DNA of 64,000 nt from Schmidtea polychroa. Its lineage: Eukaryota. Of the stretch, positions 1 to 34,303 are shown one piece after another. The notes below the pieces were generated by a model. The model had not been told where the DNA came from, ran no database searches, and was given only the letters and a program-made list of their open reading frames with translations. The translations under genes were made by a program, and so were the position numbers. The stretch lies in contig CM097885.1 of assembly GCA_044892525.1 (NCBI GenBank), positions 32,116,001 through 32,180,000 on the forward strand. Direction: 5' to 3'. How positions within the stretch are numbered: position 1 is the first letter of the stretch; every line of letters begins with the position of its first letter.

Positions 1-1080
1 TCGACCTTCCGGTTGACTGGTGGCGGTTTTTGGAATTGATTTACATCGTGCCACGTTTACGTATATTGGCCTGGTGAATGGATTATTTACCAATTTCACT
101 CTTACATTGGTTTCGCCTACGAATAAGATCTCATATGGTCCTTTTCCGTTGCGTTGTAACTTTTTTGTGGTTCCTGGAATTAATTCCGGGGTTTCTATCA
201 TTACCCAATCACCTGTTTGAAACGTATGTTGCTTCACGTTTTTCTTTCGATCGTGTAAATCTTTATAACTTTCCTGGTAGAACTTGATATTTAATCCCGC
301 AGTTTCCCAAATTTCTTGCATTCTTTCCTTGAATTTCGTAACATAATCATCGATCTCCATATACTGCGATATCGGTGGTTGGTATTCCAGGTCAATTGGC
401 ATATTACATTCTCTTCCGTACATTAATTTGAATGGGCTCATTTTCGTTGATGCGTGAATCGACATTCTGTACGCCATAAGACATAGGTTTATGTATTCGT
501 CCCAATCTCGTTGGTGACGGTCGACGTAGTTTGATAACATTTGTATAAGTGTTCCATTAAATCTTTCCGTCATCCCATTGGTTTGAGGATGATACGGTGA
601 TGTTCTCAATTTTGCGATTTTGAAATAGTTCGTTACTTCGCTCATTATCTCACTCATAAAATTAGTTCCCTGATCGGTTAATATCTGTTTTGGTGTTCCA
701 TATCGGCAACATATCTCTTCTACCAAAATTTTTGCGATTGTTTTAGCTTTTTGGTCTGGCATCGCGAATGCTTCTGGAAATTTCGTGAGAAAGTCGGTAA
801 TCACTAAAATGTAAATATTTCCTTTATCTGACTCTGGTAGTGGACCAACTACGTCCATGGATATCATCGTCATCGGCTCTATTGGTACCGGCATTGGCGT
901 CAAAGGTGCTTTCCATTTCGATCCAGTATTTTTCCTGGTCGCACAAGTTAGGCAATTTTTTACCCATTCGGTTACGTCTTCGGTTAACGTAGGCCAAAAA
1001 TATTTCTGTTTCATTCTTGCTAACGTCTTTTTCGATGACATATGTCCTCCCAATCTCCCATCGTGATATTGCGTTAACAA
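1..1080 (-). other. Integrase domain (HHCC, DDE core, GPY), truncated by window edge
   Basis: YHDGRLGGH...CLTC, ISMDVVGP, LTDQGTNF, SPYHPQTNGMTERFNGTL, GKGPYEI. Confidence 0.95.
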
Positions 1081-4000
1081 CTCTTTTCGTCGGTTTTCCG
1101 GTATACACATTAATCGTTTTTCCCCATCCATTATCAGCAACCAATCTTTCTCTATAATATATCGGTGTCGGTGTTTATCCATATGTTCTTTTAATTTTTG
1201 GTCTTTCGCATATACATCTGTCTTTCCGGTTTTTACATAATCGATAATTTGTTTTAATTCCGCGTCCTCTTGTTGGTCCTTTCGCAATTGACAGAAATCC
1301 AAATCTTCCGCTACTATTAAGCATATGCGTTGCATTTCTGAATCTACCAAATCTGGAAAAATAAATCTTGACATACAATCGGCGTTGGCATTTGCTCTTC
1401 CCGCTTTGAATTTTATAAATGGGGAGTATTCTTGCAATTGCATGGCCCATCTCATCAGTCTACTGGACGCTTCTTTATGTTGCCCTAACCACACTAATGG
1501 TTGATGATCTGTGGTTATACATATCTCATGTCCCCATAGTAAGTATCGGAAGTGTTTGATAGCTTGTATTATAGCCAATGCTTCTCGTTCTGTTACCGAA
1601 TAGTTCTTTTCGTGCTTTTTGAATGTTCGACTGTAATACCCGATTACTCTCTCTTTTCCTTCATCGTCTAATTGTCCCAGAATCGCGCCTGCCGCGTACC
1701 CGCTTGCATCCGTTGCCAATAGAAATGGCTTCTTAAAATCTGGGTGTACGAGGATAGGTGCTTCGATTAGTTTATCTCTCAGCGTTTCAAACGCCTCTTG
1801 TTGTTCCTTCCCCCAAATGAACGAAATGTCCTTCTTTACTAATTCCTGGATTGGTTTTGCAATTCCTGCATAATTTTTGATAAATTTGCGATAGTATCCG
1901 CATAATCCTAGAAATTCCTGAACTTGGGTGACAGTTTTCGGTGCTGGACATGTTTTTATTTTCTCAATGTTTCTTGGATCTGGCTCCTTTCCTTTAGCTG
2001 ACACTATGTGTCCCAAAAACGTGACTTTTTCCTTTGCCCAATCGCATTTTGATGGTTTGAGTTTGAGTTTCCACTGTCTTAATCTAATAAATACGTTTCG
2101 GATATCTTCCAGATGTTGTTCAAATGTCGCTGAATAGATTAGTAAATCATCAATATATACCATACATTGTTTGATTCCATGAGTGACAAAGTTCATACAT
2201 CGTTGAAATGATGCTGGTGCGTTGGTTAGTCCGAATGGCATTTTCCTGAATTGATATAGATCTCGTCCCAACGTGAAAGCTGTTTTCTCTTTGTCCTCAT
2301 CTTTGACTTTAATTTGCCAGTATCCACTTTTAAGATCTAAAGAAGTAAAATATGCTGCCCCTTGCAACATCAATAACATCTCATTGATGTCCGGCAATGG
2401 ATAGGTATCTCTCTTGGTTACTGCGTTTAACTTCCGATAATCGATACAGAATCGTTGGGTGCCATCTTTCTTTTTTACCATGACCACTGGGAATTGCCAG
2501 GGTGAGCAACTCGGTTCGATTACTTTTGCGTCCAGCATCTTTTGTACTTCTGCTTCGGCTATTTCTTTTTGCATTTCTGCTAGCTTGTATGGTCTTAATG
2601 CAATTGGAGTTTCATCTATGAGGGGTATTGCATGTAGGGTAACATCGCATGTACCCAAGTCTAAATCTGAGATGGCGAATATATCTTTATATTCTACCAA
2701 CAATCGGTGCAATTTTTTCTTTTCATCATTCGTCAACAACATACTATCTATTGTCCATAATTCATCATCTTTGATCATCTCGTTGGTCATTTTCGGTAAT
2801 TCTATGTCCATCATTGGGGTCAATCTTCCCAATTTTTCGTTCTCATAAATGATTTTGTCTTCCTCTTCGAAATTCGTGATGTTGAGCGGTATCACTCCTT
2901 CTTGGTTTATTGTGATTATTTCTCTTGCGAGTGGTAATTCTCGTCGCTTTTCAAATGACTTGCTTGGTTCAAAGATAACTTCTCCTTCCATACCCGTATC
3001 CACTTTTATCTGACAAATCATCTGCGATTTTGCTGGTACTATTATTTTTTCTGGACATCTGATGACTGCATTCATTTTGCATATTCTACCGGTTTTGTCT
3101 TTTAAACACATGGTTGTTAAGTCAATTACGACTTCTTTTAATAATTCTGGCATCAAATCCGTTCCGATTATGCATGGTACGCTAAGTTTTGTTATTACTG
3201 CCAAATACGTTTCAATTTCGTTGTCCTGGTATCTCAAAGTAGTCCACCATCTTCCGACCACGTCCACTGTTTCTTTACTACATGCTATGATGTGAATTGT
3301 TGTTGATTCGATATCTTTCCAGTGTTTACTGGGGATTTGATTAATCACTATCGCTGATACATTAGCTCCGGTGTCTATCATAGCATTGGTTTCTTTACCA
3401 TTGATTTGAATCATAACTGTTACTGCTGGACCTCCAGGTAGACTCATCGCTGCTATTGTTCTTACGTCATCTGCTTGATCTACACTTTTGGTACGTCGTG
3501 CTGGCATATAATGCATACCGGGTTGACTTGGTAATTGCGGATACATATTTTGTGTCATGGTCAAAGCTGCTTGTGGTCCCACGATATCCGGTGGTATGTA
3601 GCTTCCATTGGCGATCCAGGTATTTGTCTTTTCCTTTTCCCAATATGGTGCCGTTTCCATTGGTTTTTCGTTTGGGTTTCTGTTTGGATATAGACATTTG
3701 TCGTTCCCGTTATCATCGTCGTCACTATCGCTGTTAGATGATTGGCTTCTAAATCGGTCCAAGAATTTTGGCTTATTCTTTTTCAATTGTCGTCTTGTTA
3801 CTTCATCGTACATTACTTTCCGGAATCGTCTGCCTACTTCTTCGTCGGTTCCTTTAATCTTTGTTAATATTTTAATCAATCGCTTTATCCGATGAATGTC
3901 TTTTGAGTGACCATGTAATACCATGGTTTTTGCTAAAAATGGTAAAAAGCCTACTATCATTTTCCAATTTACTTTCTTTTCCCGCTTGTATATATCAAAA

Positions 4001-7000
4001 CAAGCTAACATTTGTGTTAATATTACCCTGACTATCTGAATTATGAGTATGATCCCTAATATCCCGGCCATCATTTGTCCAAAAACTAAGAATCTTCCCC
4101 ACATTGCTTTCATCATGTTTGACGTGGCTTGTTGAAAATGGTCTGGCGATAGTAGCAGTTCGTAATTCGGGCCTGATTGATAATTTGTTCCCCCCGTTAT
4201 TGTAACCATATTTGACAAAATGGATTCTCGTCTGGCTGGGAAGAGTACGTTAAGTCGTGCTGTTTCTAGATCTTCTGGGGAATACATACCACCGTTTGAC
4301 ACGTCTATAGGTTTGAAATCCAGCTCTGTGGCGAGTTCTATTAATCCAAATTTCTTGGGCTCCTCGGATATGGTTTTTCCCGGTAACATCATCCATTTCC
4401 CATCGGGCCTTTCATACAAAGGTCCGTATGCATTAGAACAGTTAAAGAGATTTGGGTAGAAACCCACTGGATTCATAATTCTAGTGACTGGTTGGACGAA
4501 TCGATTTTGTCCTTTATAACGGATTTCTAATTCATTTGCACATCTCTTTTCGGGTAGTATAGATTTTTCTGGCATTCGTGCATACGTCTTGGTACACTGG
4601 TATGTGTACATTACTTCTCCTACCATTCTACCAAAATGTCCATCCGGTAATGGGAGTGATGGCATCGTGTTATCTGGGTGCGTTATCGCAATAGCTAGCT
4701 TTGTTTTCAATATTTCTTTATTCAATGAACACTCGTTTTGTATCAGATCGTAATATACTTTTTGCAAGGTCGTTTGTCCGCGATGAAATAGAAAATCCAT
4801 TTTATTATTTGCATATAAGTATAGTTTTACGTCCTCCGTTGCTATCTTTCCCACTGCTCTATCGATTATTTGTCTCGACATATAGATGCCTGCGTAATTG
4901 GTTTTATATACTATACTGTCACATTTGGTGGTTTCTTTCTCTTTGATAAATCTCATACCTAGATCTGGATCGTCTGTGATTAATGCTGTTGGTGTCTTCT
5001 GCGTTGAAAGTCTCTTTTCTCTGGGAGATGGTGGCATTGGTTTTCCATTTCGCATTCTCACCCTGTCGTTTCCATCCTCGTCGTTCTCGTTCTCATATAT
5101 TTCTCCTTTTACTTCATTGAACAAGGCACTTTTTAACAGTTGGAGTCGGCATTTTTGGGTATTAGCTTCATAGATTATAGTTGATACTCCTGTCTTGCAT
5201 ACGTTTTCTGTAGCTCTACACGCTGGGTTGGTCTTCATTTGGTAATTATTTGCGTCAAATTGCGCTTCGTATTCTTTTAATTCAACCGTATAAGACTCGA
5301 TCACTACTACTCCCGATATTACCTCGCCTCGGATCGTATACGTACCTCCGTTACATGACCCATCTGATGATTTTACTTTTCCGGATACGTAAACACTTTC
5401 GGTTTTAATCATTCCAGTTTGTCCGTGAATCGTCACTCCGTTATGCATTTTTAACGCTCCGGTTCTAAATAGCTCTTTACAGTCCTCTCGTTGTATTGAT
5501 ACGATTTCTTTGTCCAGGCCGGGTAGTATAAGAGTCGAATACGAATATTGTCCACAGTAATATGCGAGTACCTTTTTTGATACCACGCATTCCCTTGCTT
5601 GCGTTCTGATGAAATCTGATTCTTGATATACATGGTAAGTAACTTTTGTTCTTACTATGTCTAATTTGTTGGGTGATGCTTGTCTGCATTCTTCTATGTC
5701 TCTCAACGAGTATTTATCTCTCATTATCATATTATCACAATCGTAGATGGTAAAACCTGTTGCTCCACTTGTGCACAACATCCATATCATCATAGTCATC
5801 ATTAACGAATTTATCGATGCTTTTCGGCTTGCTGGGTCTTTCATGGGTAGTTCCCATTCTAGTTCATTCAACAACTTCTTCAATCTAACTTGCATCGACC
5901 TTTCTTGCTCATTTTTTCGTGGCGCTTGTATAAGTCTTTTCCATCCTCCGGCACGAATAATATGTGGTTCAATAGTATTCTCTATGATTGAAACGGTCAT
6001 TTCCACATGATTTGCAAATTGTTTATTTGGTATTTTCCTCGCAGCTAGTCCCATCAAATTATACATCAAATACGTGATTACCACTAGATGATGTTCGTCA
6101 TCATTTGCATTTGTCGTGAGCAGTTCAATCACTCTCTTCGTTTCATCCCAATCCGTTTTGGTGGTTTTCGTTTTCTCTTTGATTAACTTTGGGATTATCC
6201 CCGAAACGATGTGCCATAATTGTCTAGCTTCCGTACTGGCTACTTTCCGTTGCCACAAACGTCTAAGTTGTGGGTTTGTTATTATTAACATATCTTTGAT
6301 CAATTCTCGTATCCATTTTTCTCCTCTTTCGATCGTTGGTTGGGCTTCCTTTAGATCCCATACTATTTTATCCAATTTTTCTAATCGAACTTGCCCTTGT
6401 TCTTGCTTTAATTGTTCTTTGGTTTTGAACTCAGACTTTTCTCCTTGTTTCTTAGGTCTTCCTTTTGCCCGTTTTTCCATCATCGTTCCGGCTTCTCTGG
6501 TATTTTCGTAATTCGGATTTCTTTCGTTATCCGTTCTGGGTAATGAGCTATCGTTATTTTTTAGCCACTCATTCCATTCATCTATTATTTTATCGGTTTG
6601 ACCTTCTGGTGTTACTTTCGTTGGTTCTCTTTGCTTCTGGAATTGTTCATCCGTTTCGGTTTCCGTAGTATTGTCGATGATTTCTTTGATGTTTAGTTTC
6701 GTTGGTTGTTGATAACTCGTTGATGGCTGGTTATTAGTCCACATTTCGGCTCCTGTCGGCCATCTTACTAATAGCGGTGATCTTTCTCCTGGTTCATCGT
6801 CACTATCTTCCAGGATTATCTCTTCAACTTCTTCAGTTTCATTAGATTTACTTGGTGCTTTGTTCGGACTTGGAGTACTCAAACTGCCTTTTGTTAGTTT
6901 AGTAATTTCACTTTTCCTTTTTAACGGCTTTCCCAACGTTTCTGCCATTGTTAACACATTTGTCTCTTCCAATCTCATGGGTGTTATTCCGACGTCTGCA

Positions 7001-7683
7001 TTATCGTCTAGTGATTTTCCGAATAGTTGCAGATGGAATGGAGTTTCATATGCTAATTTCTTTTTTAATTCTCTAATCTTTGTTGTTGGATGCACCTCTA
7101 GTTCCTCGATGCTCTTGTCCGGATACTTGATTCGGATGTGATACCTCTCCTGAGTGTCTTGTGCCCATTCCTGATTTCTCCATTTTCGAATAATTTGTTC
7201 TAGCTGTTCTGGATACCATTCATTATATTGCCGGTATTCCTCTATTGCCTTTGCCATTCCTCTCAGATTGTGGATGTTCTCTGATGTCTTTAAGATGATG
7301 TTAGCCAACGCTACTACTTGGCGTTTTTGATTTTTCGCTCCCATTGCTAAGATATCGCCTAATTGTTTATATCTTTCTTTCTCTTCTCGTTCTCTTGCTT
7401 CCGTCGCTTCCTCGCCGTCCATATCAGCATATTCCCGTTCCTTTTTCCTCATTGCATGAATGTGTCTCGCTTCATTTTCGCTTTCTGATGTGACATCCGT
7501 CTCGCCTTCGTCATCTGATGTCTGTTCCCTTGCTTCCTCTTCATATTCTGGAGGTTCCTCTTCTTCTTCCTCCGATTCACTTTCTGTCTCACCAATGTCT
7601 GTTTCTACGAAGATTCCTTTCCGGATTTCCCATTCCTTATTTTCTGCATTCCACACTCTTTCCCATTGGGTTCGTCTGCAGGA
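1..7683 (-). CDS. ORF2 polyprotein (>=2561 codons, no stop in window): UBL - Bcl-2-like - signal peptide - class III-type Env - TM - protease - RT - RNase H - integrase
   Basis: Manual translation finds no stop from 7683 to 1. It is in the same frame as ORF1, directly after TGA 7684-7686. First ATG at 7452. Absent from the ORF track, probably because it has no stop in the window. Confidence 0.93.
1360..1740 (-). other. RNase H domain
   Basis: PFLLATDASGYAAGAIL, NYSVTEREALAII, TTDHQPL, ANANADCMSR. Confidence 0.95.
1930..2640 (-). other. Reverse transcriptase domain (Ty3/Gypsy type)
   Basis: SPWQFPVVMVKKKDG, RFCIDYRKLN, LDLKSGYWQI, MPFGLTNAPASFQR, YIDD at 2146-2157. Confidence 0.97.
3070..3420 (-). 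other. Retropepsin aspartic protease domain
   Basis: AMIDTGAN (DTG at 3367-3375) and downstream CIIGTDL. Confidence 0.93.
3997..5817 (-). other. Envelope glycoprotein resembling chuvirus G (class III-type fusogen), with internal signal peptide and TM anchor
   Basis: Signal SINSLMMTMMIWMLCTSGATG|FTIYDC. Motifs YSLRDIEEC, ECVV..YYCG, DGSCNGG, LYLYANNK, ECSLNKEILKTKLA, GEVMYTYQC, FVQPVTRI, NGGMYSPEDL, VLFP occur in the order typical of chuvirus-like glycoproteins. About 14 Cys; TM about 3997-4100. Confidence 0.85.
5932..6321 (-). other. Divergent Bcl-2-fold-like domain
   Basis: BH4-like WIRELIKDML and BH2-like IIENTIEPHIIRAGGWKRL. HHLVV..GGW spans 51 aa, the same as GRIVA..GGW in human BCL2. 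NWGR of BH1 is absent. Confidence 0.55.
6940..7143 (-). other. Ubiquitin-like domain 3
   Basis: YHIRIKYPDKSIEELEVHPTTKIRELKKKL...LQLFGKSLDDNAD matches the ubiquitin pattern LEV.P...I..K.K...L..GK.L.D. No C-terminal GG. Confidence 0.7.
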
Positions 7684-10605
7684 TCAGGTGCTTAATTTCG
7701 TGATTTTTCTTTGTAGTTCTTTTTCTTTTAACCATTGTTGGTGGATTTCAATTATTTCTGTAGATTTTTGATATAACGTTTTCATCCGGTCTCGTATTTC
7801 TTTTTGATAGATTACATCTCTTGTTCGAAATTCATCCATTGGTACTATCCTGATGATCTGATGATTGTCCCACATACCCAATTCGCTTAACGAGGTGTCG
7901 TCTTCCGCTCGTAATATTATTTTATCGTACATCATGACTACATCATCCACCATACCATCACTACTTTCGCTACGTACCTTTTCCGTTATCTCTTGGTTTA
8001 TCTTTGATACCAAGTCATCCACTGTACTCCGATTGCTCATTTTTATTCGTCGTTTTTCTTCGTTCGGTAACCATATGGTTATTTCCAACCTCTGTGGCTG
8101 GGTTTCTTTTAACCTTCCATATTTGTGGATCAAATTTATGGTTCTCCAATCACTCATCCGGAGCATTTCTGTATCTCGCAATCGGCTCATTAGTTCGTAC
8201 ATGGCTGGGGCTCGTCTGGTGATGAGTAAATCCCAGTTGTCTTCTACTTGTTCTTGAATTTGTTTGATCAGCTTATCCAGGTTTCGTCTCAGAGTACATT
8301 GTTTTATTTGTTCTAATTTCAATTTGATATTAAAATCATATTCTGCCTTGGCATCTTTAGCCCAATCGTAAAGGTTGGCTGGTTGTTTTTCTTTATGCAA
8401 CTTCAGTATTTGCGTTTCTCCTGGCCATATTAGTGCATCTACTAAGTGCATATCTGGTTTGATCTGTTCTCCTTGGTATTGATACAGATATTCTTTCTTT
8501 CTCGAACTTCCCAAATGTTCTCGTATCCAATCGAAAAGTTCGTCGGTGACTGTACTTTTGATCCACATTCTTTCAAGTCCTCTGCTCGTTCCGATTTTTA
8601 TTACATACCGCGTGGTATCGGCCTGCTTCATTTTTTCCATATACTTTTTTATAATTGATTTTTCCTCGTTTGGTATTAAATCTTTCTCGTTTCTTTCCAA
8701 TTTCATCACTTTTTGCACGAATCGCCTGAATGGTATTACGTCGATGAACTCTTGGTTTCTCACTACCACCGGGAGTATTTCGGCTACCTGTTTTATCGCT
8801 TCCTCCCTTGCTTTTCTCAACTTTATTTCGATATCCTCGTCTTCACTTCCACTTGTTATCTCGCTTTCGCTTTCTTCCTCTTTGATTTCCCCTTTTGGAG
8901 GTTCGCTTATTTCATTTAGCTGTAGTATTTCTCCACCCAAACTACTTACATAGTCTTTTTCTTCGTCTGACGATGCTACATCTTTTGTCCTTTTCATCAT
9001 ATTGATTTGCAAATTTCTCATCCTTGGTACTCTCTTTAGTTTCTTTCTTTCGAATATCGTTGTTTCTTCTGATTCTAATTCTTGTAGCATTTGGTGGTTT
9101 AGTTGACTGGTTTGTTCCTTGCTCTTGTTATTTTCATCTTCTGTCTCAGCTTTCGCTTTATTATGTTCTTTTTCGATTTTATCTTTTATCTTTTTCCAGA
9201 ATATTTTCTGAATTCTCTGGTTTCCTTTTAAAATCGTGGTTGAATTCTCTGTTTTCATTTCCGTTGTTGTTTCTGTTACCTTTTCTGGTTCAGTCATGGG
9301 TACTACCCTTGGGTTTTTCCCGTAATTGTAACAATACTGGCTTTTCATGTCTTTTACTAACTTCATCATATTAATTCGCAATGGTTGTTCTTGTCGTTGT
9401 TGGTTGCGTTCTTGTTTTATCTTCTCTTCCTCGGCCTGTAGTCTTTGCCATTCTTGTACATGTTGATGCACTTCATAATTGTTGAGATTTTCGGTACTCC
9501 TCATCATACGTATATTCTGGGTTTGTTGTGGTGCTGATTCCGGTCTCGGTCTCATCATTTGTTGCATCATCTGTTTCATCTGCGAGATTTCCTGCATAAC
9601 GTTCATTTGTTTTCCTTCGCTAGGGTTACTTTGTCGTTGCGGATTCGCCATATAATTATTATTTCGCTGTGGTGGTCGTTGTTGTTGGCCCCTTTCTCGG
9701 CAATCTCTGGAGATGTGACCTGGCTGACCACAGTTAAAACAACCTCTCAATTGGCATACATTTTCGGTATGTCCACGCCGTCCGCAACGATTACAATTTG
9801 AATTTCTATAGCAATCTCTGTCCCAGTGTCCTGGTTTACCGCATGTTCGACACTGCTTGTTATTGTTCATATTTCGTCGATTATTAAAATTGTTCTCATT
9901 ATTTGGGTTGCTACGATTACCATTATTCCCATTTGATCGTCCTTGTGGTGGTTTGAAAATTTGGTGCGCTCCTGGTATAAATTGATTCATTTTCGGTTCT
10001 TGATTGTTGTTATCTCCGTTATCCGCTTTCGCTATTGCTGTCGCTATCCTCCCATCCTCTTGCATAATATTCATTTGTGCTGGAAGGTGGAGCTCGCATC
10101 TTGTAGCCCAATCTATGGCTTCCTCTAATGTTTTGCACATTTGACAACCTACTGAGGCTCTTACTTCTTCTCGGCGTAATCCCTCTATGAAATAACCGAT
10201 CAGATTTTCTTCGGGTAATTTTCCATTCATTGCTTTCTTCGCTATTCTCCGCAATTCACTGGCATATAATGTTATCGATTCGTTTGCTCTTTGTTTCCTA
10301 TTTGCTAGTTCGCCCAACGCCTGGTTGATTGGCTTACTGGCTCCGAAGGTTTTCTTCAGGAATGTTTTGATATCTTCCCACTTTTCTAATTTCGTATCTC
10401 TCTCTTTAGCTTCTAAATATACTTCTAATGCGCTATCGCACAAAAACAACGGCATCCTTTTACTAATTGCTTCGGGTGTCCATCCACACACAGTGATATA
10501 AACTTCAAAATTAGTTATGAACGTTGCTAGCTTGTTTGCATTTCCATTGAACGGTTCTCCTCGGAACTTTTCTTTATACTCGTCGGTTTTTACGACATTC
10601 GTCAT
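7684..10605 (-). CDS. ORF1: Gag (capsid plus three CCHC knuckles) extended by acidic/charged linkers and two ubiquitin-like domains
   Basis: 973-aa ORF with retrotransposon-gag-like N-terminus. CX2CX4HX4C knuckles at 9811-9852, 9754-9795 and 9700-9741. Frame stays open without ATG up to 10950. Confidence 0.92.
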   Translation of the reverse strand: MTNVVKTDEYKEKFRGEPFNGNANKLATFITNFEVYITVCGWTPEAISKRMPLFLCDSALEVYLEAKERDTKLEKWEDIKTFLKKTFGASKPINQALGELANRKQRANESITLYASELRRIAKKAMNGKLPEENLIGYFIEGLRREEVRASVGCQMCKTLEEAIDWATRCELHLPAQMNIMQEDGRIATAIAKADNGDNNNQEPKMNQFIPGAHQIFKPPQGRSNGNNGNRSNPNNENNFNNRRNMNNNKQCRTCGKPGHWDRDCYRNSNCNRCGRRGHTENVCQLRGCFNCGQPGHISRDCRERGQQQRPPQRNNNYMANPQRQSNPSEGKQMNVMQEISQMKQMMQQMMRPRPESAPQQTQNIRMMRSTENLNNYEVHQHVQEWQRLQAEEEKIKQERNQQRQEQPLRINMMKLVKDMKSQYCYNYGKNPRVVPMTEPEKVTETTTEMKTENSTTILKGNQRIQKIFWKKIKDKIEKEHNKAKAETEDENNKSKEQTSQLNHQMLQELESEETTIFERKKLKRVPRMRNLQINMMKRTKDVASSDEEKDYVSSLGGEILQLNEISEPPKGEIKEEESESEITSGSEDEDIEIKLRKAREEAIKQVAEILPVVVRNQEFIDVIPFRRFVQKVMKLERNEKDLIPNEEKSIIKKYMEKMKQADTTRYVIKIGTSRGLERMWIKSTVTDELFDWIREHLGSSRKKEYLYQYQGEQIKPDMHLVDALIWPGETQILKLHKEKQPANLYDWAKDAKAEYDFNIKLKLEQIKQCTLRRNLDKLIKQIQEQVEDNWDLLITRRAPAMYELMSRLRDTEMLRMSDWRTINLIHKYGRLKETQPQRLEITIWLPNEEKRRIKMSNRSTVDDLVSKINQEITEKVRSESSDGMVDDVVMMYDKIILRAEDDTSLSELGMWDNHQIIRIVPMDEFRTRDVIYQKEIRDRMKTLYQKSTEIIEIHQQWLKEKELQRKITKLST
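7837..8091 (-). other. Ubiquitin-like domain 2
   Basis: LEITIWLPNEEKRRIKMSNRSTVDDLVSKINQEI...VVMMYDKIILRAEDDTSLSELGMWDNHQIIRIV; beta-grasp UBL pattern (TV..L...I, L.D...LS.LG). Confidence 0.72.
8392..8613 (-). other. Ubiquitin/SUMO-like domain 1
   Basis: RYVIKIGTSRGLERMWIKSTVTDELFDWIREHLG...YLYQYQGEQIKPDMHLVDALIWPGETQILKL; SUMO-like F/Y.Y.G.QI pattern. Confidence 0.55.
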
Positions 10606-11976
10606 GATTGGTGTTCTAGATTCGTCGGTTTCTTTTAAATTATCCGGTGACGTGACTAAATTTTGGGCTGATAATTCCTCGGTTGACGTTGCTAAACTAT
10701 TAGTGATGTCGGACAGACTTTCTCTGCTTCGAGATCGACTAGGGGTGTATCCGAGATTTTCTTGGTCAAATATAGGTACTTGATTGGTTCTTCTTGATCC
10801 TTGTGATATTCCTCTTTGATGTTTAATAGATCGTCCTCTTTTGAGTTGTTGTAATTCGTCTCCTGAAAATAATACGTCTCCTGGCTTACTTGAAGATCTA
10901 AGGTTGGGTTTATCCGTGATTCCTTTCTTACGCTTCTTGGTAATTAGCGGCTACTGAATTGGACGAGTTCGGTTCTGATTGTGTTTCCTTCTATAAGTAT
11001 TCTGTATGAATCTGCTACTGTGATTCTGAGGAGATTTACTAGTCCTTGACAGATGGCTGCTAATACTATGAGGTTGAATATATCGATGATTCGTTCGAAG
11101 TTGGAGATGTCGCTATCTGTATCTTCTTCCGTTCTGGAGTCTTCCGGTTGCTGTGTCTCTCGGTGCGGGTTCTGAATGGATTTATTCTTGGTCGATTGTC
11201 GATTTCTTCGAATTCCTTTTGTGCGGGTTCTGGATTGTCTTGGTTGACTGGATTGGTTTGATATCTAAAATGAAAAAATGATCTCGTGTTGCATCTGCTT
11301 ACACGACTTCATCATTCTTTCAACAACATTCGAACACAGACACCTTTTAGGTTCTGTTTATGCTTCCCCTATTTTTTATGCAATTACTTCCGCGGGTTAT
11401 AATCTCCCATCAGCCCGAAATTTTCGTCGATTTTAAATTATCTATATGGGGTAGTAACAATTATCTATAGAGTCGTAATAATTATCTATTTTTATCACTT
11501 ATAATAGGAATAGGTCGTTGTCGGTCACTGCTTATTACCCCCCTTTCGTTTTCCTAGTCCTTTTTGCGCGGTTGTCGCTGTTTTACTTTTCGTATTTGCT
11601 ATTATCTCACTCGGTTCTACTCTGGAACCAATAAAATATATTCTCCCGCTTCGCCCAAAAAAGAAAAATATTATTCCGTAGAGTTTCTCCACTTCACTGG
11701 GGTCCCTTTAATTAGTTGGTTACTTTCCTCTTTACTCATTATCATCGTTTCGCCTATTCTTTATTTTCCATTATCTCTTTAGTTCGTTTCCTTCTTCCCT
11801 TTCCTTTTTCCTTATAATCTTATTATCTTTTCCACGAGCTCGTTTATTTCCTCTCTAAACTCAAATTTTCGTAATTACCTTCTATTTGTTCTGGCTAGCT
11901 TTACTATTCCATTTCACTAGTAATTTAAATATTATCTCATTGTAGCTTAACTGCTATCTCTCGTTTTTCTAGGCCT

Positions 11977-12352
11977 TTACGACTGGCTGGCACTATTCAA
12001 CAGCTCAATCTTCTTCCTTCTGATCGGTTGGACTATTCAACAACTCGATCTTACGACTGGCTGGCACTATTCAACAGCTCAATCTTCCTCCTTCTGATCG
12101 GTTGGACTATTCAACAACTCGATCTTACGACCGGCTGGCACTATTCAACAGCTCAATCTTCCTCCTTCTGATCGGTTGGACTATTCAACAACTCGATCTT
12201 ACGACTGGCTGGCACTATTCAACAGCTCAATCTTCCTCCTTCTGATCGGTTGGACTATTCAACAACTCGATCTTAATATCTCCGAACTGGCTGGACTTTT
12301 CACAGCTCAGTTTTCGTTTCCCTTGACCGGCTGGACTATTTTACAGCTCGGC
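11977..12352. repeat. Tandem array: 4 x 74 bp (each two related ~37-bp halves) plus 2 degenerate halves
   Basis: Units start at 11977, 12051, 12125 and 12199. Shared core GGYTGG(C)ACTATTCAACARCTC. Confidence 0.95.
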
Positions 12353-12911: not shown

Positions 12912-13394
12912 TCATTCACCATAGTAGACCATATGAGTTTCTTTTATCTCGTGCTTACATATCGTGCATCTTGTTAGCTCGTTCCCGCATTCTTCGCAGT
13001 GACTGAGGTGTCCACACGGCAAAAACAGTACGCGAATAGGACGAAGTTTACAAGCAAGGCAAGTTCGTAGTAGAGTCAGTTTTTCTTGTATTTTCCGCTC
13101 GATTGTATCTGATATGGTATTTAAGGGATCTTTTATACGTTGATAATCAAGATTTAATGCTGGGTGGTTCAATCTCTCTTGATACCATTGGTACACGGTT
13201 TCCGGGTTTACCTTCCCATCTGGGTGACTTAGTCCTGTGGCTAATAACATGTGGTTGGGGACGGCTGGTGTTTGCCCGATTGCTTGTAGTATGATGTTAA
13301 TTCTTTCTCTCTTTTGTGTCAGCGTTTTAAGGGAGTCATTCTCGATGTTTATGAAGTTGATTAGTTGTTGTATCTGATCTATGAATTCCGTCAT
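12912..13394 (-). CDS. IAP-type RING (C3HC4) E3 ligase without BIR domains, possible UBA-like segment
   Basis: RTCLACKLRPIRVLFLPCGHLSHCEECGNELTRCTIC has C-x2-C-x11-C-x-H-x3-C-x2-C-x6-C-x2-C spacing as in XIAP/cIAP. LLATG resembles ILATG of the cIAP UBA. Splice acceptor lies 2 nt before the ATG; AATAAA about 120 nt after the stop. Confidence 0.85.
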   Translation of the reverse strand: MTEFIDQIQQLINFINIENDSLKTLTQKRERINIILQAIGQTPAVPNHMLLATGLSHPDGKVNPETVYQWYQERLNHPALNLDYQRIKDPLNTISDTIERKIQEKLTLLRTCLACKLRPIRVLFLPCGHLSHCEECGNELTRCTICKHEIKETHMVYYGE

Positions 13395-13692
13395 GTCTAA
13401 AAAAAAATGTTTCAGTAGTATATGACTTCGTTTCGTCGGACATTCTCTTTTCTAACTCGTTATCGTTATTTTACTTTTATCTTATTTCTCCATCATTAAA
13501 TTTGCTTTATTTATATTTTTAATTTTATTATTTTCTATTCGTGATTTATAATAAGATTCGATAAGCATTAGTCAATTTGCACTCGCTAACCCATTGGAAT
13601 CACTAACCCCGGTGAGTTCACTCTATTCGACAGAAATTCACTCAATAACATCCTTATCCAGTTTACACTGACCAATGGAAATTTCAATCTAT

Positions 13693-13710
13693 ATCCCGGC
13701 TGAGCCCCCA
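13693..13710 (-). promoter_or_regulatory. Primer-binding site, tRNA-Pro type
   Basis: TGGGGGCTCAGCCGGGAT, 7 nt after the LTR end (..GCAACA). Differs at 2 nt from the classic tRNA-Pro PBS TGGGGGCTCGTCCGGGAT. Confidence 0.85.
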
Positions 13711-14282
13711 AAAATTATGTTGCGGGTACACTACTCGGATGACCCCTTTCTAGTGCAACTTTAGTCTAGAGGATGAATGCCACCTCGATTTCGCCCATCA
13801 TTTATTTGGTCATCACCGAGCGGGACCCGTACATAACTTACACTCCAACATAGCACCCGTGAATTGCTTCACGTTGGAACTGTGCTATGCCGGCGAGACG
13901 CCAGTAAGCAGGTGAGCCAGCTCCTCCGGACTACTCCTTACTGAGGCCTCGACTTCCCAACCCTGACTGCCGATAGAAGGACTTACGTCTACTCATTCCG
14001 TCGCCCCATCGCAATGTTTCTAGCTGAGTTTGCCAACTGACTAATGCTCCTCCAAGTTTTATGACTCTCAATACCATTCACCAATTTCAACTCAACTGTC
14101 CTAAGATGAACACAAAAGGAAACGTATGCAGACAAAATGGTTTATTATTAAGATTATCACACAAATATACCTAACACCTATACAATAAAATTTACGACCA
14201 CCGGAAAAGAAACAAAGGTAAAAATGTTATCCGACAATGTTCGGGTCATTTCAGTGAACGAAGACTTGTTACGGAGAAGTTC

Positions 14283-15032
14283 TCATTTCTCCCACTCTGA
14301 GTCTGCCAACAGATCTTCCAAATCGAAAAATTCAGAGGCATTTTCCTCCCAGGAAACACCAGCGGCGGAGATGATTCGCCCTGAGATCACTGATGCTAAA
14401 TCGATTGCTGCAGGAGGGTTGATGACTTTGATTAGATGATCCGACGATTGCTGGTTCTGTTTGGCGGTTACGCGTTCCCGCTGTTTCTTTTTGCGTTCGG
14501 CTCTCGATAATTGCCGACGCTTTGGCTTCGATGCCGTTGGATTGGTCGGGGGTGTTGCAGAGGTAGATGCCATCACAGGTAACGCTTTACTGGTTCCGGT
14601 AAAGATGACTTCTGGTTCTTTAGGTGAGAGCTCGGTCTCTACGCACCCATGGCAGGACTTTCCGACTGGAGAAGAAGATCCGCCAGAGATATCATGATGT
14701 GCTGGGAAAAGATTACTGGCTTCATTAATTGGGATCTTCGCGATCCTCCTTGTGGTTGCTGCCTGAACGTATAATTTGTGCAGCGCCTCCGACTGCTCTT
14801 TTATCAGGCTCCTCTGCGCCCGACTCTCGGAAATCAACGCGTCTCTACAGTGCTCGCTTCGATGCAGCTTCTTCTGAGCCTCCTTCATCTGGGTGGGACT
14901 AAACCATGTCCCCTCCAACTCATCTATCCTTCTCTTATGCTTTCCGATTTGGGCCTGGAGCTCTTTGATAATTGAATTCTTGTCGGAGCAAGGAAAACAA
15001 GGTCGAAGAACGGTCTTGGAATTTGGCAACAT
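14283..15032 (-). CDS. LTR-encoded accessory protein ORF-A (249 aa): CxxC + coiled coil, second CxxC, basic patch, acidic aromatic tail
   Basis: The probable start is MLPNSK (ATG 15032), 10 nt after a strong acceptor (AG 15043-15044), not the track start at 15107. The N-terminus is conserved in the copy at 32462 (17/21 aa identical). Confidence 0.75.
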   Translation of the reverse strand: MLPNSKTVLRPCFPCSDKNSIIKELQAQIGKHKRRIDELEGTWFSPTQMKEAQKKLHRSEHCRDALISESRAQRSLIKEQSEALHKLYVQAATTRRIAKIPINEASNLFPAHHDISGGSSSPVGKSCHGCVETELSPKEPEVIFTGTSKALPVMASTSATPPTNPTASKPKRRQLSRAERKKKQRERVTAKQNQQSSDHLIKVINPPAAIDLASVISGRIISAAGVSWEENASEFFDLEDLLADSEWEK

Positions 15033-17424
15033 TTTTGAGTGACTGTGGAAAAAAAAATGAAAAATGAAAATAATTAACTCAACTGGAGTGTCACCATCTG
15101 ACCCCATTCATACTTTACAGATCATAGACAAAAATATGAGTTTACCAGTCAAGACAAGTACTACTGCACGATGGATTCTCATACCTTTTGGGTCTTTGAT
15201 TATAAGAAGATAAATCGATCAAACCCGATTCCGTACACGGAAAGGAAGGTAATACTATTAGTGAGAGAGATTCTAGATCGATGAAAAAGGATTATTTAGT
15301 TAATCCGCTTGAAGTCATTATTTCACGTTTACCGAGCATCGAGTTACATTGTTGATTTCTCCCCCCGTACGAGTGATTTTGATGAGTGTATCATATACTG
15401 GGGTCGAGTGACTATCTATGGAAAAGGGGTCCATAATGTCTGTTGATTAGTTCCTACAGGATAAACGGAATGCTATTTAAATTTTTAATTATTTATTCAT
15501 TCTCTCTAATTACTCACATATGTGTTTTGCCTGGTTTAAATATTATTTATTAATAATATTCGACATTAATATTAATGATAATTATGTCAAAAATGACATA
15601 ATTTCCGTGCCATTCATTCTACGATAATAAAGAGAGAATAATCATAATTACGATCGGGTTTAGCACTAAAAAATATTATCTTTATGATAACTGAGCACGG
15701 TATCAATGTGAGCTAGTAGCCGACCATTCCTACTAGGTAGATAAGGAAATGTCAGCCCGGTGGTTGACTATTAATCCAGAGCGGTGAAATATGATACCTG
15801 TCGGTAGTCTAATTGGTTAACAGAAATTCCATCTGGTATGTTCGTCGGATTTTTCCTGAGTAGAGGCGTGTGTGACTTTGCCCACTGTACTTGGCCACTA
15901 GGTGAGTCTGTACCTGGTGACGCATGCAGGGTGTGCTTTCACACACTTAATTATACTACAATTGTAGGTGTTAAATGTTTGCAAGATGTCATTTTCTCAG
16001 AATTTTATCTATCGCGTAATCACTCACAATTCTCCTGCATATGGCGCTGATTTACTAATTCTCACCGGATTATTGGAAAAATTATAATTATCTGTATTGC
16101 AAATGTTGGATATAGCTTGCTCCACGGGTGGATTTTTTCGTCTTTAATTCCTCAAACCTAGTTTATCGATCTACTCTCTAAGTGCTGGAGGATTTCTACC
16201 TATCCCTGCTGGATTGCCAACCCCACGAAATACTGGAATTTTATATTTAATTAACAAGATCATCGGCTAACTTGAAGAAATATATTTTTCGTGGCTCGCA
16301 TTGGTTGCATTTTTCAATTCTAAATTATTTGATGCCAATAGTTTATGTGGTTATGATAATTAATTGTATGTAACTCCTTTTATATAAAATTCAAAAAAAA
16401 TTATGATAGCGAATCATTTTATGTAATTTGAACTTTTATTTGGAACAAACTCGTTTTATGCAATTCTGAATAACTATTTGGATTAAATCATTTTACCTGG
16501 TTCTTCCCTTTATTTACAAGCAGTCATTTCGAGTAAACCTAATACTTGTATGAAGCAATCTACTTTGAACTCCCTGGCAACTATGTCTTTAAGAGAACTT
16601 TTAGATGAACGGAATAACAGTTCCGCAGGTCATAGGCTAAAAATTGGTCGGAACAGATTCTGAGTGAAAAGTATGAACATCGAAGATATGTCACAGATAG
16701 CCTCACTAAGGTTTGAACAATTTTTGACACACAACTTACATTGATGATAGAGAAAATTTAGGCTTAGAAAAACCGATATTCGAAGACGATATTGTGACAC
16801 TCTCAATCACTACGCGAATACATCAAAATTTTCCGATTCCTTTATTACATATCTTTGTTTTCAATCACTACATGACTATCAATTTCGGCCCCCATTTACC
16901 TATAGATTTTAGTCGCACCTTCAGCGATTGGACCCGTGAAGAAGCCCTCACATTTCGGCCCAATCTAGCTGCGTGATTGAAATACCCTATGTCCACCGGT
17001 GGAGCTCCCGAAGGCACCTCACACCATGACATAGAGTATCTCAACGCCACGTTTCTCGCCAAATTGAATGGTCTCCAATAATAATTCATAAAAATTAATT
17101 CATAAAAGATCGAACGAGCAAATCATTTATTATTAAGCAAATTATTAATTTAAATAAAGTATTCTAATATCAAACGAAAAGAAAAACCATTTTTTAAATT
17201 AAGAATATTATTGAACTATACGCATTACTTAAAAATCCAAACTAAGCAATCAAAAATCCTTACCGAATGATTGATACAAGTATGGGCTGAGTCGAAAAGG
17301 GTACTATGTCGAATCAGTTAATGCTCGAGTGTCGTCTAGTTCTGTAAAAATCTTTTGAATCTTGGAATTGTCCTCGTGAGTTATCGTGCGTTAGTTGCTG
17401 GAGTTCTGTTCCGTCGTAGAATAG

Positions 17425-17561
17425 ATTTACCTATTGAGGTGGTTTGATTAACAGTCACAGTTATTTAAATTTCACTTACCTATTGAGGTGGTTTGATTAA
17501 CAGTAATTGTTATGTTTTTAATGCCTGCTTATATATTAATTTTTTGTTTGCGCGGACCAAT
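17425..17561 (-). promoter_or_regulatory. LTR promoter: inverted CCAAT, TATA box and downstream splice donors
   Basis: ATTGG 17557-17561, TATATAA 17529-17535, GTAAGT at 17479 and duplicated GTAAAT at 17430. The solo copy has the same spacings (ATTGG 30955, TATTTAA 30981, GTAAG 31036). Confidence 0.7.
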
Positions 17562-18523
17562 TAGAATTGAGTACCGCTTTATTTTATTAATTTAATTTAT
17601 TTTCTTTGTTTTCGAGTTATTTCTTCTTACTTTCTTTATTAAAATTATGTTTTTATTTATTTTCCTTAATTTTCTTAGTATTTACTATATTTTACGTTGT
17701 TTTCTGTCATTCTATTGTCTTATTTTAATTTTTCTCATCTTTATATTTTTGTTTTAATTCTTATTTTCTAATTATTGTTTTTCTTATGTTTTATTCTATT
17801 TTATTTGTCAATTTATTTGTTTTTATTTTTTATTTTATTTTAGTTCAGTTTCCCTAATTCCCAACTACCCTTCGACTCAGCCCAACATATCTGTTACTTG
17901 TAATTGTTACATAATTAAATAAATTTTTGCAAAATCATATATTTTTTACAGAAAGTACCTATACCTTGATATAAGATAGGTTCCTCAAATATATAGAAAG
18001 TAGGAAAACATTTAACCACGATAATCAAAATTTTTATAATAAAAAATATTCAAAGTGGACAATGATTAAGAGTCTCATTTTAAATATCAGAAAAGAATTA
18101 AGGATGTTTCCGAATAAATTTTTTATGTTGACATTACCAATTATTCAATAAATATATACGATTTTAAGTTAATTTATGGTTTTTTTAGAATTTGTACCAA
18201 AAATTGGTAAAAATTTAGAAAACACATTTTTCACAAATAAATATCCAATCTTCATGATAATTAGATAATTATTAAATCTAAAGTATGAAAATGAGTTATT
18301 ATACGTCGTCATCCTTATTTAATTTCATTTTGACCCTTATTTAATGTCTTTTTTACCTTTATTTTTTGTACTTTGATTTTAACCCAGTGCTACAACAATC
18401 TTACTATTTCACACTTAGTCAGAAATTTTTTATCGTTCAAAAATGTTATATTTTTTATCCAATATTAAAACAAAAAATTACAAATTTACAAAATCTTTAT
18501 TCTAAACAGTAAAATGATCGCTG

Positions 18524-21393: not shown

Positions 21394-24300
21394 CAGCGCC
21401 GGTTTGAGATAATTATACGCCCCAGGCGAAAATTATAAAAAGCGCCCTATTTTAAAAATTAGGTACAAAAATTATGATAAAATAAAAAAGTTTAACAAAA
21501 AACAATCCATTTATTACTTTATTTCATTTTTTTCGATTGACATATATATAAAAAAAACAGAATTTATAAGAATGATTTTTTCCTGGCTTTCATGTCTGCA
21601 AATTTTTCTATTGCTGCCTCCAAATTTAGGTTTGCTACAACATTATTTTCAATTGAAATAATGGCCAAATTATTCAACCTATCTTCCGTCATAGTAGATC
21701 GCAAATACGTTTTTATTAGTTTTAATTTACTAAAACTTCTTTCACCACTCGTAACACTAACAGGAATTGTTACGAGGATTCGTAAAGCCACCCACAGATT
21801 TGGTACTGTACTTTTCAAATTATTATCATTGATAAATTGTAAACATATTAAAGGATCTTTAACATCATCTGGTACCAATTGCTTCAATGATTCGATTTCC
21901 TCGCACAATTCTATTCCATTTATATCACTACTGGCCTCATTTGTTAATTTCAGATGTAAATCTTTGCAACTCTTCAGCAAATCACAACGATTTTTATTAT
22001 TGTGAATATTGAACAAAAAACCCCACGAATCTTCGAAATCTTTCATTTGCTGAAACCTTTCTGATATACATATCAACGATTGATCCAGCATAACATTAAA
22101 AACATGATTTTTATAATATTTTTCTGGGTCATTTACATCTGGAGTTTCATCGTCACACTCATAACTAAATTGTTTTTGTCGCCTTCTGATTCTTACAGCT
22201 TTAAATTGTGCGTTCACGTTTAATAGCGCAGCGAGATCTTTGGCCGATTTTAAAGCATCAGAAAAACCGGAGTCTCTATAATTTTCTAGAAAAATCTTAC
22301 AATTCCGAAGAAGCTCGATGGCGTTACTCATATCAAATGTAGCTTTTTGCATGGATTTGCTGACAATATTAAATTTTGACAAAAGTACGTACCAGGCAGA
22401 TAATGTTAACAAAAACTCGAAATCTTCTATTTTTTCAGATAAAGAGCTAGCTTCTGAAACAACTGCAGCATCTAATATTGTGTCTTGCAACTCATTTAAT
22501 GCGTTTCTAATTTCCGTGATTTCAAACATAATTGCTTTAATGCATTCGATTCTACATTCCCACCTCGTTTCACTTAAAGGTTTAGGATTTAATGATTTAA
22601 TATGTTTTTTCAATATATTCCATCGTCCAACAGATGCAGCAAACAAAGTATAAATTCTTTGAACATATCCGAAAAACTTTATGCACATTATTGAAGAAGA
22701 AACACTATCACCAATTAGTAGGTTAATTGAGTGACAACCGCAAGGCATAAAAAACGCTCTTGGATTTTCTTTTAAAATTCTAGCTTGCACTCCTTTAATT
22801 TTACCTTTCATATTAGCGCCGTTATCATATCCTTGGCCTCTACAGTTTGCTAATTCCAAATTGAATTCTTCTAAACTTTCACAAATATCATCATATAATC
22901 CTTTTCCAGTAGAATCAAAAACTGGTTTAAAGGATACAAAATGCTCTTTTATTTCCATATCCTCAACATCATAAAATCTTAACATTATGGAGAGCTGTTC
23001 GATATGGCTTATGTCAGGTGTGCAGTCTAAAATAATCGAAAAATATTTCGATTTACGAACAGAATCCAAAATATGACTTCTTGTCATATCACCAAGTGTA
23101 CTTATTAATTCGTTTTGTATAGTTTTTCCACAATAATGAACATGAATTTCTTGTGAGACCACCCTGCGCAAATGCTCATTTAATGGTAAATCAAATTTTC
23201 CTAGAAGTTCAACAAGGCCTAAAAAATTTCCATTATGCGGAACAAATAACTTATCACAAGAACCCCGAAATGCTAAATTATTTTTTGACAAAAATAATGT
23301 TATGTTTATTAATCTTTCTAGTACCTTTTTCCAATTATATTTTTCTTGGACTATCAAAGACTGCAAATTCTTATCAATAGTTTTATTGCCCTTTAATCTT
23401 AATCGAGTTTCTATCCAGTTTTTTTCACATTTTAAATGTGAAACTGACCGTTCGTGCATTTTCAAGCTGTCGTGAATATTTTTCCAATCCCATAAACCAG
23501 ATTTGGCTAGATTTGACCTACCTGATGGATCAAAAAGTTTGCAAAAAAAACAAAATACAGAATTTTTGGATTCTGAATAGTGCAACCATTTTCTTAGGAA
23601 TTTTTCACCATTACTTATTTGACGATAAAAAAGCGAATTGGAAAAGCTTCGATTATTTTCATCTCTTGGATAAATATGTTGTTGATTACACCTTTCTTCG
23701 TTTCCATATAAGTCAGTTACAACTATATGGTCAATTTCCGTATGTTTTAAATTTTGTGGCCATAGCCCAATATCATTATAATTTAAAATATTTTCAAATA
23801 CAGAATGAGTTGAATCACAAGGAACAATTATTTCAGTTCCGTGAGAAGACATTAAATTATCCTCATTGATAATATTACAATTTTCAGCTTCTGATGACAC
23901 ATTACCTATATCGTCCTCTGAGCTTGAAGATGTTGACTCGAAATGTTGATTATCATCGGCTACTGATTTACTGGAATTAAAATATTTCAATATTTTATCG
24001 TGCTTATCAGCTTGTTGTTGTCTATTTATTTTTCGTTTCCGATATTCATACCCACTCAATTTTTTTGGTGGCATCTTAGCTATGGCATAAATTTATATAA
24101 ATATATTATATATTTTCCAATATATTTTTAAAAAATGATCTTAATCTTACCTTACCTCTTATATATTTATATTTTTAAAACAGAATAGGAATACAAATTT
24201 AATTTGAATAAACTGCAACAACACAACACATTAGTTAGACACTTGAAACAAAAAAATTGTTAAAAAAAACTGGTAGCTATAGATGTTAATTTAACTCGCA

Positions 24301-33310: not shown

Positions 33311-34303
33311 TTATTTCTTATTACAATTATTAAGCACCCAATTGAATGCTTCATCGACCTTGGCCATATCCATGACAGTGGAATTGATAACCTGCCATTT
33401 TCCATTGAGATTGTTCATGTCGAGAAATTTGATGACAGAAATGCACGAGAATTTGCGCGGCTGGAACTCATTGAGAGCCAATGACAACACGAGAATCGGG
33501 ATGTGCGGCTTCACCCACATGTGCTGAGTGATCGAGTACAATTCGATTTTCGCCAGTTCCCAGAACGAGATCCGTTCAACATTTGCATCGACAACGTAAA
33601 CCAACGCGTCCATTGACAGGAAGAAATCGCTGGCTTGAGAGGTCAATTTCAAAACGTCTGAGCTTGACGATTGGAACAATTTATTGTTCTGCATTCGATT
33701 GGTCGCCTTCACAGATTCCATTCGTTCGGTTTCTGTCGATGAGTAAATGATGCTCAAATCAAACTGTTTGTTGTAGGGATTGCTGCTGTTTTTCAATTCG
33801 AACGTAAATCCCGATCCGATCCCACCGGCATAACCGGGAAACATTTTCACGAATTTCAACGGATTGATTGAACTGTCACGCATTATATTCTTCACAAAAC
33901 AACTCGTGTCTGACTCTAGTCCAGGTCCAATTAAGGCAATTTTAGGGACGACTTTATAGAAAAGAGATTTAAGTCTGATGAAAACATCGTTGAAAGAAAA
34001 TGAATTGAAAATCATGAAATACTCTTGAACGTCAGGACAACATCTTAAATAAATTTCTTTGCTTGGCATTTCGTTCGGATATCTTGATATGTACAATTCA
34101 GGATTTGCATCACTCCCAAGAGACTTCCAATATTTACTATCGACTAATAATTTCCGTCGCCAAAAATATTCATCATTACTTATTGAATAAAACCGATTGC
34201 TTACACAAGACAATCGGCATAAATCTTTTGCTGATAAATACGACAACACATTAAAAAGAATATCTTCTGGTAAATTTTGAAATTTAAGAGTATTATCGGC
34301 CAT
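33311..34303 (-). CDS. FBXO4: F-box only protein 4-like (F-box plus small-GTPase-like substrate domain), intronless
   Basis: LPEDILFNVLSYLSAKDLCRL, PKIALIGPGLE, GIGSG, IIYSST..ER, DALVYV, PILVLS and C-terminal FNWVL match the FBXO4 layout. Confidence 0.88.
   Translation of the reverse strand: MADNTLKFQNLPEDILFNVLSYLSAKDLCRLSCVSNRFYSISNDEYFWRRKLLVDSKYWKSLGSDANPELYISRYPNEMPSKEIYLRCCPDVQEYFMIFNSFSFNDVFIRLKSLFYKVVPKIALIGPGLESDTSCFVKNIMRDSSINPLKFVKMFPGYAGGIGSGFTFELKNSSNPYNKQFDLSIIYSSTETERMESVKATNRMQNNKLFQSSSSDVLKLTSQASDFFLSMDALVYVVDANVERISFWELAKIELYSITQHMWVKPHIPILVLSLALNEFQPRKFSCISVIKFLDMNNLNGKWQVINSTVMDMAKVDEAFNWVLNNCNKK

Follow-up and report, generated by a model that had tools for sequence, protein, structure and literature searches.

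A class III glycoprotein in frame between gag and pol of a giant planarian Ty3/gypsy element, and a model for its polyprotein at the membrane

By what route may a retroelement bring Pol into a particle when an envelope glycoprotein stands between Gag and the protease in the same reading frame? The question is raised by a 64,000-nucleotide stretch of Schmidtea polychroa DNA (GCA_044892525.1, contig CM097885.1, positions 32,116,001 to 32,180,000; hereafter the window, whose numbering is used unless a locus is named), which holds on its minus strand a long terminal repeat (LTR) element with gag, env and pol in one chain. Our reading, to which we assign a probability of roughly 0.7, is that this is a Burro-type giant Ty3/gypsy element with an env, whose single polyprotein is threaded four times through the membrane of the endoplasmic reticulum (ER).

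Frame, fold and constraint of the in-frame Env

The initial annotation had claimed that the frame is uninterrupted from an internal signal peptide to the DTG of the protease, and this was borne out. The minus-strand open reading frame (ORF) 1..7683 (2,561 aa, still open at position 1 of the window) spans signal to integrase without a stop, and no stop occurs from the signal-like stretch through the ectodomain, transmembrane (TM) helix, second hydrophobic stretch and tail to the DTG at 3375-3367. The parts of the chain within the window are as follows.

7684..10950, minus: gag part of the polyprotein (Pfam; Retrotrans_gag 10452-10171, three CCHC knuckles 9855-9697, long extension)
7684..7686, minus: in-frame TGA of the window copy, splitting gag from env-pol; most scored copies are stop-free between gag and env
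6901..7191, minus: weak ubiquitin-like domain (PF00240, E 0.0055, under the curated cut-off)
5926..6153, minus: Bcl-2-like helical domain before the Env signal, on moderate evidence (profile E 0.0025 to Bcl-xL)
5755..5820, minus: predicted internal signal sequence with small residues at its end; predicted cleavage before 5754
4129..5754, minus: fusion ectodomain, class III (gB-like, chuvirus-type) by Pfam and modelled fold
4012..4128, minus: membrane-proximal helix (4128-4075) and TM helix (4074-4012), from hydrophobicity and model
3913..3966, minus: second hydrophobic stretch, which is most likely no span but a cytosolic helix associated with the membrane
3418..3912, minus: rest of the predicted cytosolic tail or linker, beginning with a basic amphipathic helix
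3142..3417, minus: retroviral aspartic protease (DTG 3375-3367; Pfam RVP, E 2.3e-8)
1426..2478, minus: reverse transcriptase (RT) and RNase H (Pfam)
1..1104, minus: integrase, with H2C2, core to 586 and GPY-type C-terminal part (Pfam)

A chance ORF or artefact was rejected, as PF24664 (E 1.8e-70), RVP (E 2.3e-8), RVT_1, RNase H and integrase lie in the same frame, which is open across copies. All 55 scored matches to 3367-5817 in the host genome were stop-free, although these are top scorers and hence a biased set. In 50 of them, a gag match stood at the offset expected from env and had an open frame of equal length, in four (including the window copy) the lengths differed, and one had no scored gag partner. 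A sample that was not selected on Env, every third gag match after the window's own (40 copies), contained 35 copies that extend over the whole env-protease span, and in 30 of these it is free of stops and frameshifts. That env is fused in frame to pol in most copies, as had been proposed, is thus upheld by both sets. A frame of 4,732 codons from stop to stop holds 36/55 scored env matches and 59/120 scored gag matches, as well as the C-terminal module in 60 of 118 scored copies (hand count; one with an internal stop) and RT-RNase H in about half or more of the scored copies; all these copy counts are lower bounds, skewed to young copies. Its order is Gag, ubiquitin-like, Bcl-2-like, signal 1, class III ectodomain, TM, tail, protease, RT, RNase H, integrase, ankyrin repeats, signal 2, ectodomain, TM and tail. 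In the window copy the frame also shifts shortly after integrase.

Within the Gag extension, two further ubiquitin-like-looking segments (7810-8100 and 8380-8640) were seen by eye and have no clear Pfam support. For the Bcl-2-like domain, the top Foldseek rows were Bcl-xL (probability 0.84-0.97), but with E of about 0.3 and a model pLDDT of 52. This domain ends about 50 aa ahead of the Env signal (5755-6153), and the signal, once cleaved, would resemble the anchor by which cellular Bcl-2 proteins are held in membranes at their C-terminus. The spacer between protease and RT has no Pfam match, though it shows conservation across families (E 1e-8 to 1e-11).

The class III identity put forward for env was confirmed by profile and by fold. 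The ectodomain matched Pfam PF24664 (Monjiviricetes_fusion, E 1.8e-70), and an AlphaFold model built from 108 sequences (mean pLDDT 86.6) had a gB-like multi-domain fold with a long central helix. Foldseek matched this model to two of the glycoprotein types that the initial annotation had named for comparison, chuvirus G and herpes gB: against BFVD the best rows were chu-like and related negative-strand virus glycoproteins (E 8.5e-40), and against PDB all the top rows listed were herpes gB (best E 9.6e-14). VIA-align gave Z 10.2 and a root-mean-square deviation of 7.6 over 425 aligned positions (residues 1-524). The other features of the class, namely a signal, conserved cysteines, a membrane-proximal region and a single TM helix, are all present, and a candidate fusion loop may lie near 5562-5532. 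Sequence comparison reached less far: word-index homolog searches returned none for the ectodomain and none for the family-2 C-terminal module, the single ectodomain sequence had 0 matches among PDB sequences, and its profile found only weak gB rows there (E 0.03), a huntingtin row being disregarded as low-complexity. A class I gypsy Env or baculovirus F type was rejected as improbable, since the class III match spans residues 1-540 of the model and leaves no room for an F-type domain; absence from match lists would on its own be no exclusion. Taken as a modelled fold, Env is well supported as a class III fusion glycoprotein.

To gauge constraint, variants common to several copies of the gag-ranked sample were counted by simple site counts against the window copy. 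The ectodomain carried 131 synonymous and 7 nonsynonymous shared variants (ratio per site, pN/pS, 0.01), and pol 103 and 11 (0.03). The TM helix with the second hydrophobic stretch had 13 and 0, and the tail between TM and protease 32 and 5. Env is therefore strongly under purifying selection: its shared variants are overwhelmingly synonymous, and successful copies thus need its amino-acid sequence, a constraint that may serve either entry or folding. In 20 of these copies, the core of the C-terminal ectodomain showed 13 synonymous and 2 nonsynonymous variants, and linkers were freer (0.2-0.4); the C-terminal membrane module, too, is under purifying selection. Signal 2 has few sites (0 synonymous, 2 nonsynonymous; 20 copies).

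The arrangement extends beyond this family. A HMMER scan with Env found 1,075 proteins at E 0.001, and 25 proteins, picked by length or rank from 150 listed matches, were scanned for domains. In 13 of the 25, Env is followed by protease in one chain; five of these also have RT, and three a Gag-type domain upstream. P0151 (4,844 aa) is a further Env-protease chain, and two more families in the same genome, with Env 36-37% identical, have the same domain order; the Bcl-2-like domain is present in only some relatives. In a midpoint-rooted Env tree of 59 rows (the first 45 stand-alone rows plus fragments; P0001 and P0002 were dropped by the length filter), the fused Envs form one clade with support 0.996. 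Since all tree rows are matches to this Env query, no donor is claimed. The Env TM of P0001, P0003, P0004, P0015 and P0151 is followed by repeated protease-like D[TS]G motifs or domains, numbering from two to six.

Topology of the chain and a second membrane module

Where Pol would lie depends on how many times the chain crosses the membrane before it. In 12 of 15 relatives a hydrophobic stretch with small residues precedes the xxYDC start, the other three having the stretch too, and from these sequences a signal with small residues ahead of that start appears to be general. From the end of the TM helix it is 199 aa to the protease start and 212 aa to the DTG. Between them lies the second hydrophobic stretch, which the initial annotation had seen as a caveat, for Pol would be luminal if it crossed. 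This caveat is largely removed. The Hessa-scale sum is 7.3 for the stretch vs -0.1 for the TM helix, with medians of 5.8 vs 1.7 (114/121 aligned rows). It contains Gly, Pro and Lys, has basic residues on both sides, and is followed by 30 aa with 9 K/R and a moment of 0.44. It is conserved, and is aligned also in stand-alone glycoproteins of about 650 aa from the Env family. Several fused relatives have a Cys-Cys pair within it, which could be acylated.

The remaining argument comes from beyond integrase. The chain of this family continues there, outside the window, with two blocks of ankyrin repeats and then a second signal, an ectodomain, a TM helix and a short tail (L031 9875-6759).

L031:6762-7787, minus: second signal, ectodomain, TM helix and tail, forming the polyprotein C-terminus (about 2.2-3.2 kb past the window start)
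L073:2670-3620 and L075:2699-3925: C-terminal modules of signal, ectodomain, TM helix and tail at further loci

All seven chains that reach well past integrase have a signal-like stretch after it, and in six of the seven (the window family, families 2 and 3, P0001, P0006 and P0151) this is followed by one TM helix, with a basic C-flank in each. A cleavable signal 2 requires its N-side to be cytosolic, and Pol would thus be a cytosolic loop. The threaded topology with cytosolic Pol that had been proposed is supported in this way, through hydrophobicity and the post-integrase signal-TM pairs, and we hold it to be very probable.

Some of the C-terminal modules are suggestive of fibronectin type III (FN3). 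The family-3 module has a fibronectin-III-like Atlas feature match (0.92, 155 shared features), at the level of a lead, and an FN3-like motif was picked out by pattern or by eye in 4/7 modules.

A proposed model of a threaded polyprotein, and its rivals

Upon the observed frame, fold and selection, a course for cleavage, topology, packaging and entry can be modelled. Gag would be made in the cytosol until signal 1 directs the ectodomain into the lumen; signal peptidase would cut after signal 1, and the signal helix would keep the Gag-side product in the membrane. At the Env TM helix the chain would return to the cytosol, where the second hydrophobic stretch would lie along the cytosolic leaflet. 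The next part, Pol with the ankyrins, would form a cytosolic loop, held at one end by the Env tail and at the other by signal 2, which would launch a second type I membrane protein and be cut by signal peptidase in its turn. Gag, Env and Pol would gather on one membrane patch. As all products would face that patch, Pol could be enclosed without Gag-Pol fusion, entering the budding particle by way of its membrane tethers. Protease dimers would form among the clustered tails, and the element's protease would free the enzymes. For tether-based packaging and Env-mediated cell entry we judge the chances to be about even.

Precedent for the threading exists in other viruses. In the structural polyproteins of flaviviruses or hepaciviruses and alphaviruses, and in coronavirus pp1a, internal signals thread the chain through the ER, and host signal peptidase and viral protease process it. 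The flavivirus and alphavirus fusogens are of class II, unlike that described here, and their replicase is not packaged by a tether to the envelope tail; no sequence kinship is claimed. The fullest form of the proposal is an enveloped retrovirus of flavivirus-like build, with four ER crossings, Gag and the Bcl-2-like domain anchored by the Env signal, the Pol loop packaged, and an FN3-like C-terminal protein serving as attachment partner of the gB-like fusogen. We offer this form tentatively, as the less probable version. If the model is true, a retroviral Pol would be packaged without Gag-Pol fusion, and one retroelement polyprotein would yield two surface proteins. As a test case the family offers dozens of near-identical open copies, selection on Env and on the C-terminal membrane module, and a concrete four-span topology.

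Several points weigh against the proposal. The topology is read from hydrophobicity scales that have no position terms. In P0013 the post-integrase signal is followed by three more hydrophobic stretches. In P0151 an additional signal-like stretch lies at aa 2092, between Env TM and RT; Pol would be inverted by it, unless this stretch is skipped or the record represents a rearranged copy. The ectodomain has a single N-glycan sequon. Retroviruses make Gag in excess, unlike a single ORF, which implies equal Gag, Env and Pol; further control must therefore exist. As to the FN3 part, the lead consists of the one family-3 Atlas match and the by-eye motif: the C-terminal ectodomain of the window family had no Atlas or Pfam match, pairwise similarity among the modules is weak, and a three-sequence alignment was poor.

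The stoichiometry would be solved if the Pol of particles came from a spliced or env-skipping RNA, translated into soluble Gag-Pol, with the threaded chain mainly making Env and its Pol part being degraded or unused. Single-ORF LTR elements are known to balance Gag against Pol through splicing or turnover. However, the tail from TM to protease is under purifying selection (32 synonymous, 5 nonsynonymous), the Env-protease fusion is kept in distant families, and the contigs of run X1 fill all 30 bins with no skipping joint listed, with the limit that this run is only guessed to be RNA and that contigs cannot show absence. We consider this route quite unlikely. Env might also be an intracellular membrane scaffold, or an aid to budding into the ER or vesicles, rather than an entry fusogen, its folding being selected since misfolding would trap or destroy Pol. 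An Env in cis upstream of Pol is bound to be under some constraint for that reason, and the lone sequon fits, as does the fact that the passages on Burro in PMC6431247 and PMC8532177 report no infectious particles. Against this, constraint on the ectodomain exceeds that on pol (pN/pS 0.01 vs 0.03), the whole class III fold is kept with its cysteines, and a second surface-type protein is also kept, so that a scaffold appears unlikely, if less so than some of the alternatives.

The last rival takes the second hydrophobic stretch as a span, leaving the tail and Pol luminal and a functional Pol to be made by another route. The stretch is conserved and largely apolar over some 15 residues (Kyte-Doolittle 1.9 for 15 aa), and the extra signal of P0151 indicates that parity is not universal. 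Its poor insertion score, internal Gly, Pro and Lys, and basic flanks on both sides speak against a span, and the post-integrase signal-TM pair with basic C-flank requires that the preceding chain be cytosolic. RT and integrase, moreover, have to work outside the lumen. A spanning stretch is accordingly very improbable, and the cytosolic Pol loop of the threaded polyprotein is retained.

Published relatives, the element and its surroundings

The in-frame gag-env-pol architecture is not new, contrary to what the initial annotation had implied: it is already published for planarian Burro elements, which carry env in frame between gag and pol (PMC6431247, 2019, whose section on Burro/GYPSM1 cites Jurka 2007 and Grohme 2018), and gB-type flatworm elements of this order are described in PMC13524379. 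As described in that section, Burro and the present element are both longer than 30 kb with LTRs and have one ORF near 5,000 aa (4,873 and 5,140 aa in Burro, 4,732 codons here). They share a Gag with three CCHC knuckles, a BCL2-like domain, env between the BCL2-like domain and the protease, ankyrins and MATH/TRAF. Burro-type elements also have Ubi/SUMO-like and dUTPase-like motifs; here the ubiquitin-like match is weak (E 0.0055), and the spacer between protease and RT gave no Pfam match. Length, ORF, CCHC Gag, in-frame env, and ankyrin with MATH/TRAF all agree, with the BCL2-like domain on moderate evidence. They differ in that TRAF here is a separate downstream ORF, whereas it lies inside ORF1 in Burro1 and upstream in D. 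tigrina, and in that BIR was found in none of the ORFs scanned with Pfam, which are part of the element's ORFs. The Burro section ties env to gypsy Env and baculovirus-type fusion proteins, noting mononegavirus matches, whereas the env here is class III; our analysis sides with class III for the Burro env over that earlier reading. Neither a topology nor a second membrane protein is described in that section. BURRO1 RNA is reported to be under PIWI control (PMC8532177).

In PMC13524379 (2026), GAG-ENV-POL elements with an ENV of HSV/gB type are described from Platyhelminthes, Nematoda and Bryozoa, six of them from S. mediterranea (Smed_errantivirus_1-6); they resemble the present element in gene order, gB-type fold and planarian membership. 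By eye only, Smed_errantivirus_5 appears to be the nearest to the window Env; family 2 looks like number 4, and family 3 like number 1. That paper notes ectodomains flanked by two TM segments and cites Sacco et al. 2022 for nematodes; the words 'polyprotein', 'in frame', 'fused', 'fibronectin', 'packaging' and 'cytoplasmic tail' do not occur in its main text. In the open literature, leaving aside subscription papers, figures and some supplements, we found no published account of a threaded topology or a post-integrase membrane protein. Possible novelty lies in two parts, the model with four spans and the second membrane protein; Sacco et al. 2022 may already discuss fusion and topology. The BEL/Pao element Anakin (PMC7642597) captured the same glycoprotein family, PF24664, whereas the present LTR element is Ty3/gypsy. 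BEL/Pao membership was rejected here because Env precedes the protease and Pol is in gypsy order; in the BEL-type match P0061 the glycoprotein follows DUF5641, on the C-terminal side and not before the protease.

The element, about 30.4 kb long, is delimited by an LTR pair, a 4-bp target-site duplication and a tRNA-Pro primer site. The TG...CA LTRs, short duplication and tRNA primer site agree with Ty3/gypsy, as does the Pol order of protease, RT, RNase H and integrase (Metaviridae; Pfam). Its remaining features are these.

13719..17888, minus: 5' LTR, 4,170 bp, TG...CA ends
13694..13711, minus: primer-binding site, complementary to the 3' end of host tRNA-Pro(TGG) by sequence match
12912..13451, minus: upstream accessory ORF with C3HC4 RING finger (Pfam zf-C3HC4_3, E 3.6e-11)
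11977..12272, no strand: 74-bp tandem repeat (repeat family D3) between RING ORF and gag
L031:4765-6201, minus: separate TRAF-like ORF (RING and MATH; Pfam) downstream of the polyprotein
L031:3516-4622, 2923-3402 and 2027-2596: further accessory ORFs, namely coiled-coil ORFs and a small ORF with signal and TM

The partner LTR lies 8-12 kb past the window start (L032/L031), and by BLAST the pair is 99.96% identical over 2,476 bp and 99.06% over 1,707 bp, the latter piece with an indel. This identity (99.06-99.96%), together with the 4-bp duplication and the tRNA-Pro site, indicates a young 30.4-kb element. The 3' motif of the primer site is present in genomic tRNA-Pro genes (four tRNA-Pro at locus L100, none at L099). 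At L100 a large tandem array of tRNA-Pro(TGG) genes with 475-bp spacing begins at 130.90 Mb of contig C1 of the genome (G000), and the tRNA-Pro 3' motif, the predicted primer of the element, has 2,190 genomic matches. Copies spaced by about 26.2 kb, the element minus one LTR, occur in G000 at C4:46.24-46.29 Mb, C2:177.68-177.71 Mb and C4:69.88-69.91 Mb, and this spacing suggests tandem elements with a common LTR. The LTR contains a 274-aa ORF (14283-15107) with no Pfam match. Contigs of run X2, a run of uncertain kind, have a 52-base skip with CT..AC ends (intron-like, minus strand) at 10986-11039, just upstream of gag.

Elsewhere in the window there are an open hAT transposase (21564-24092), a pogo/Tc5-type DDE transposase (41964-43283), and an F-box gene of one ORF whose C-terminal part is weakly Arf-like (33311-34309).

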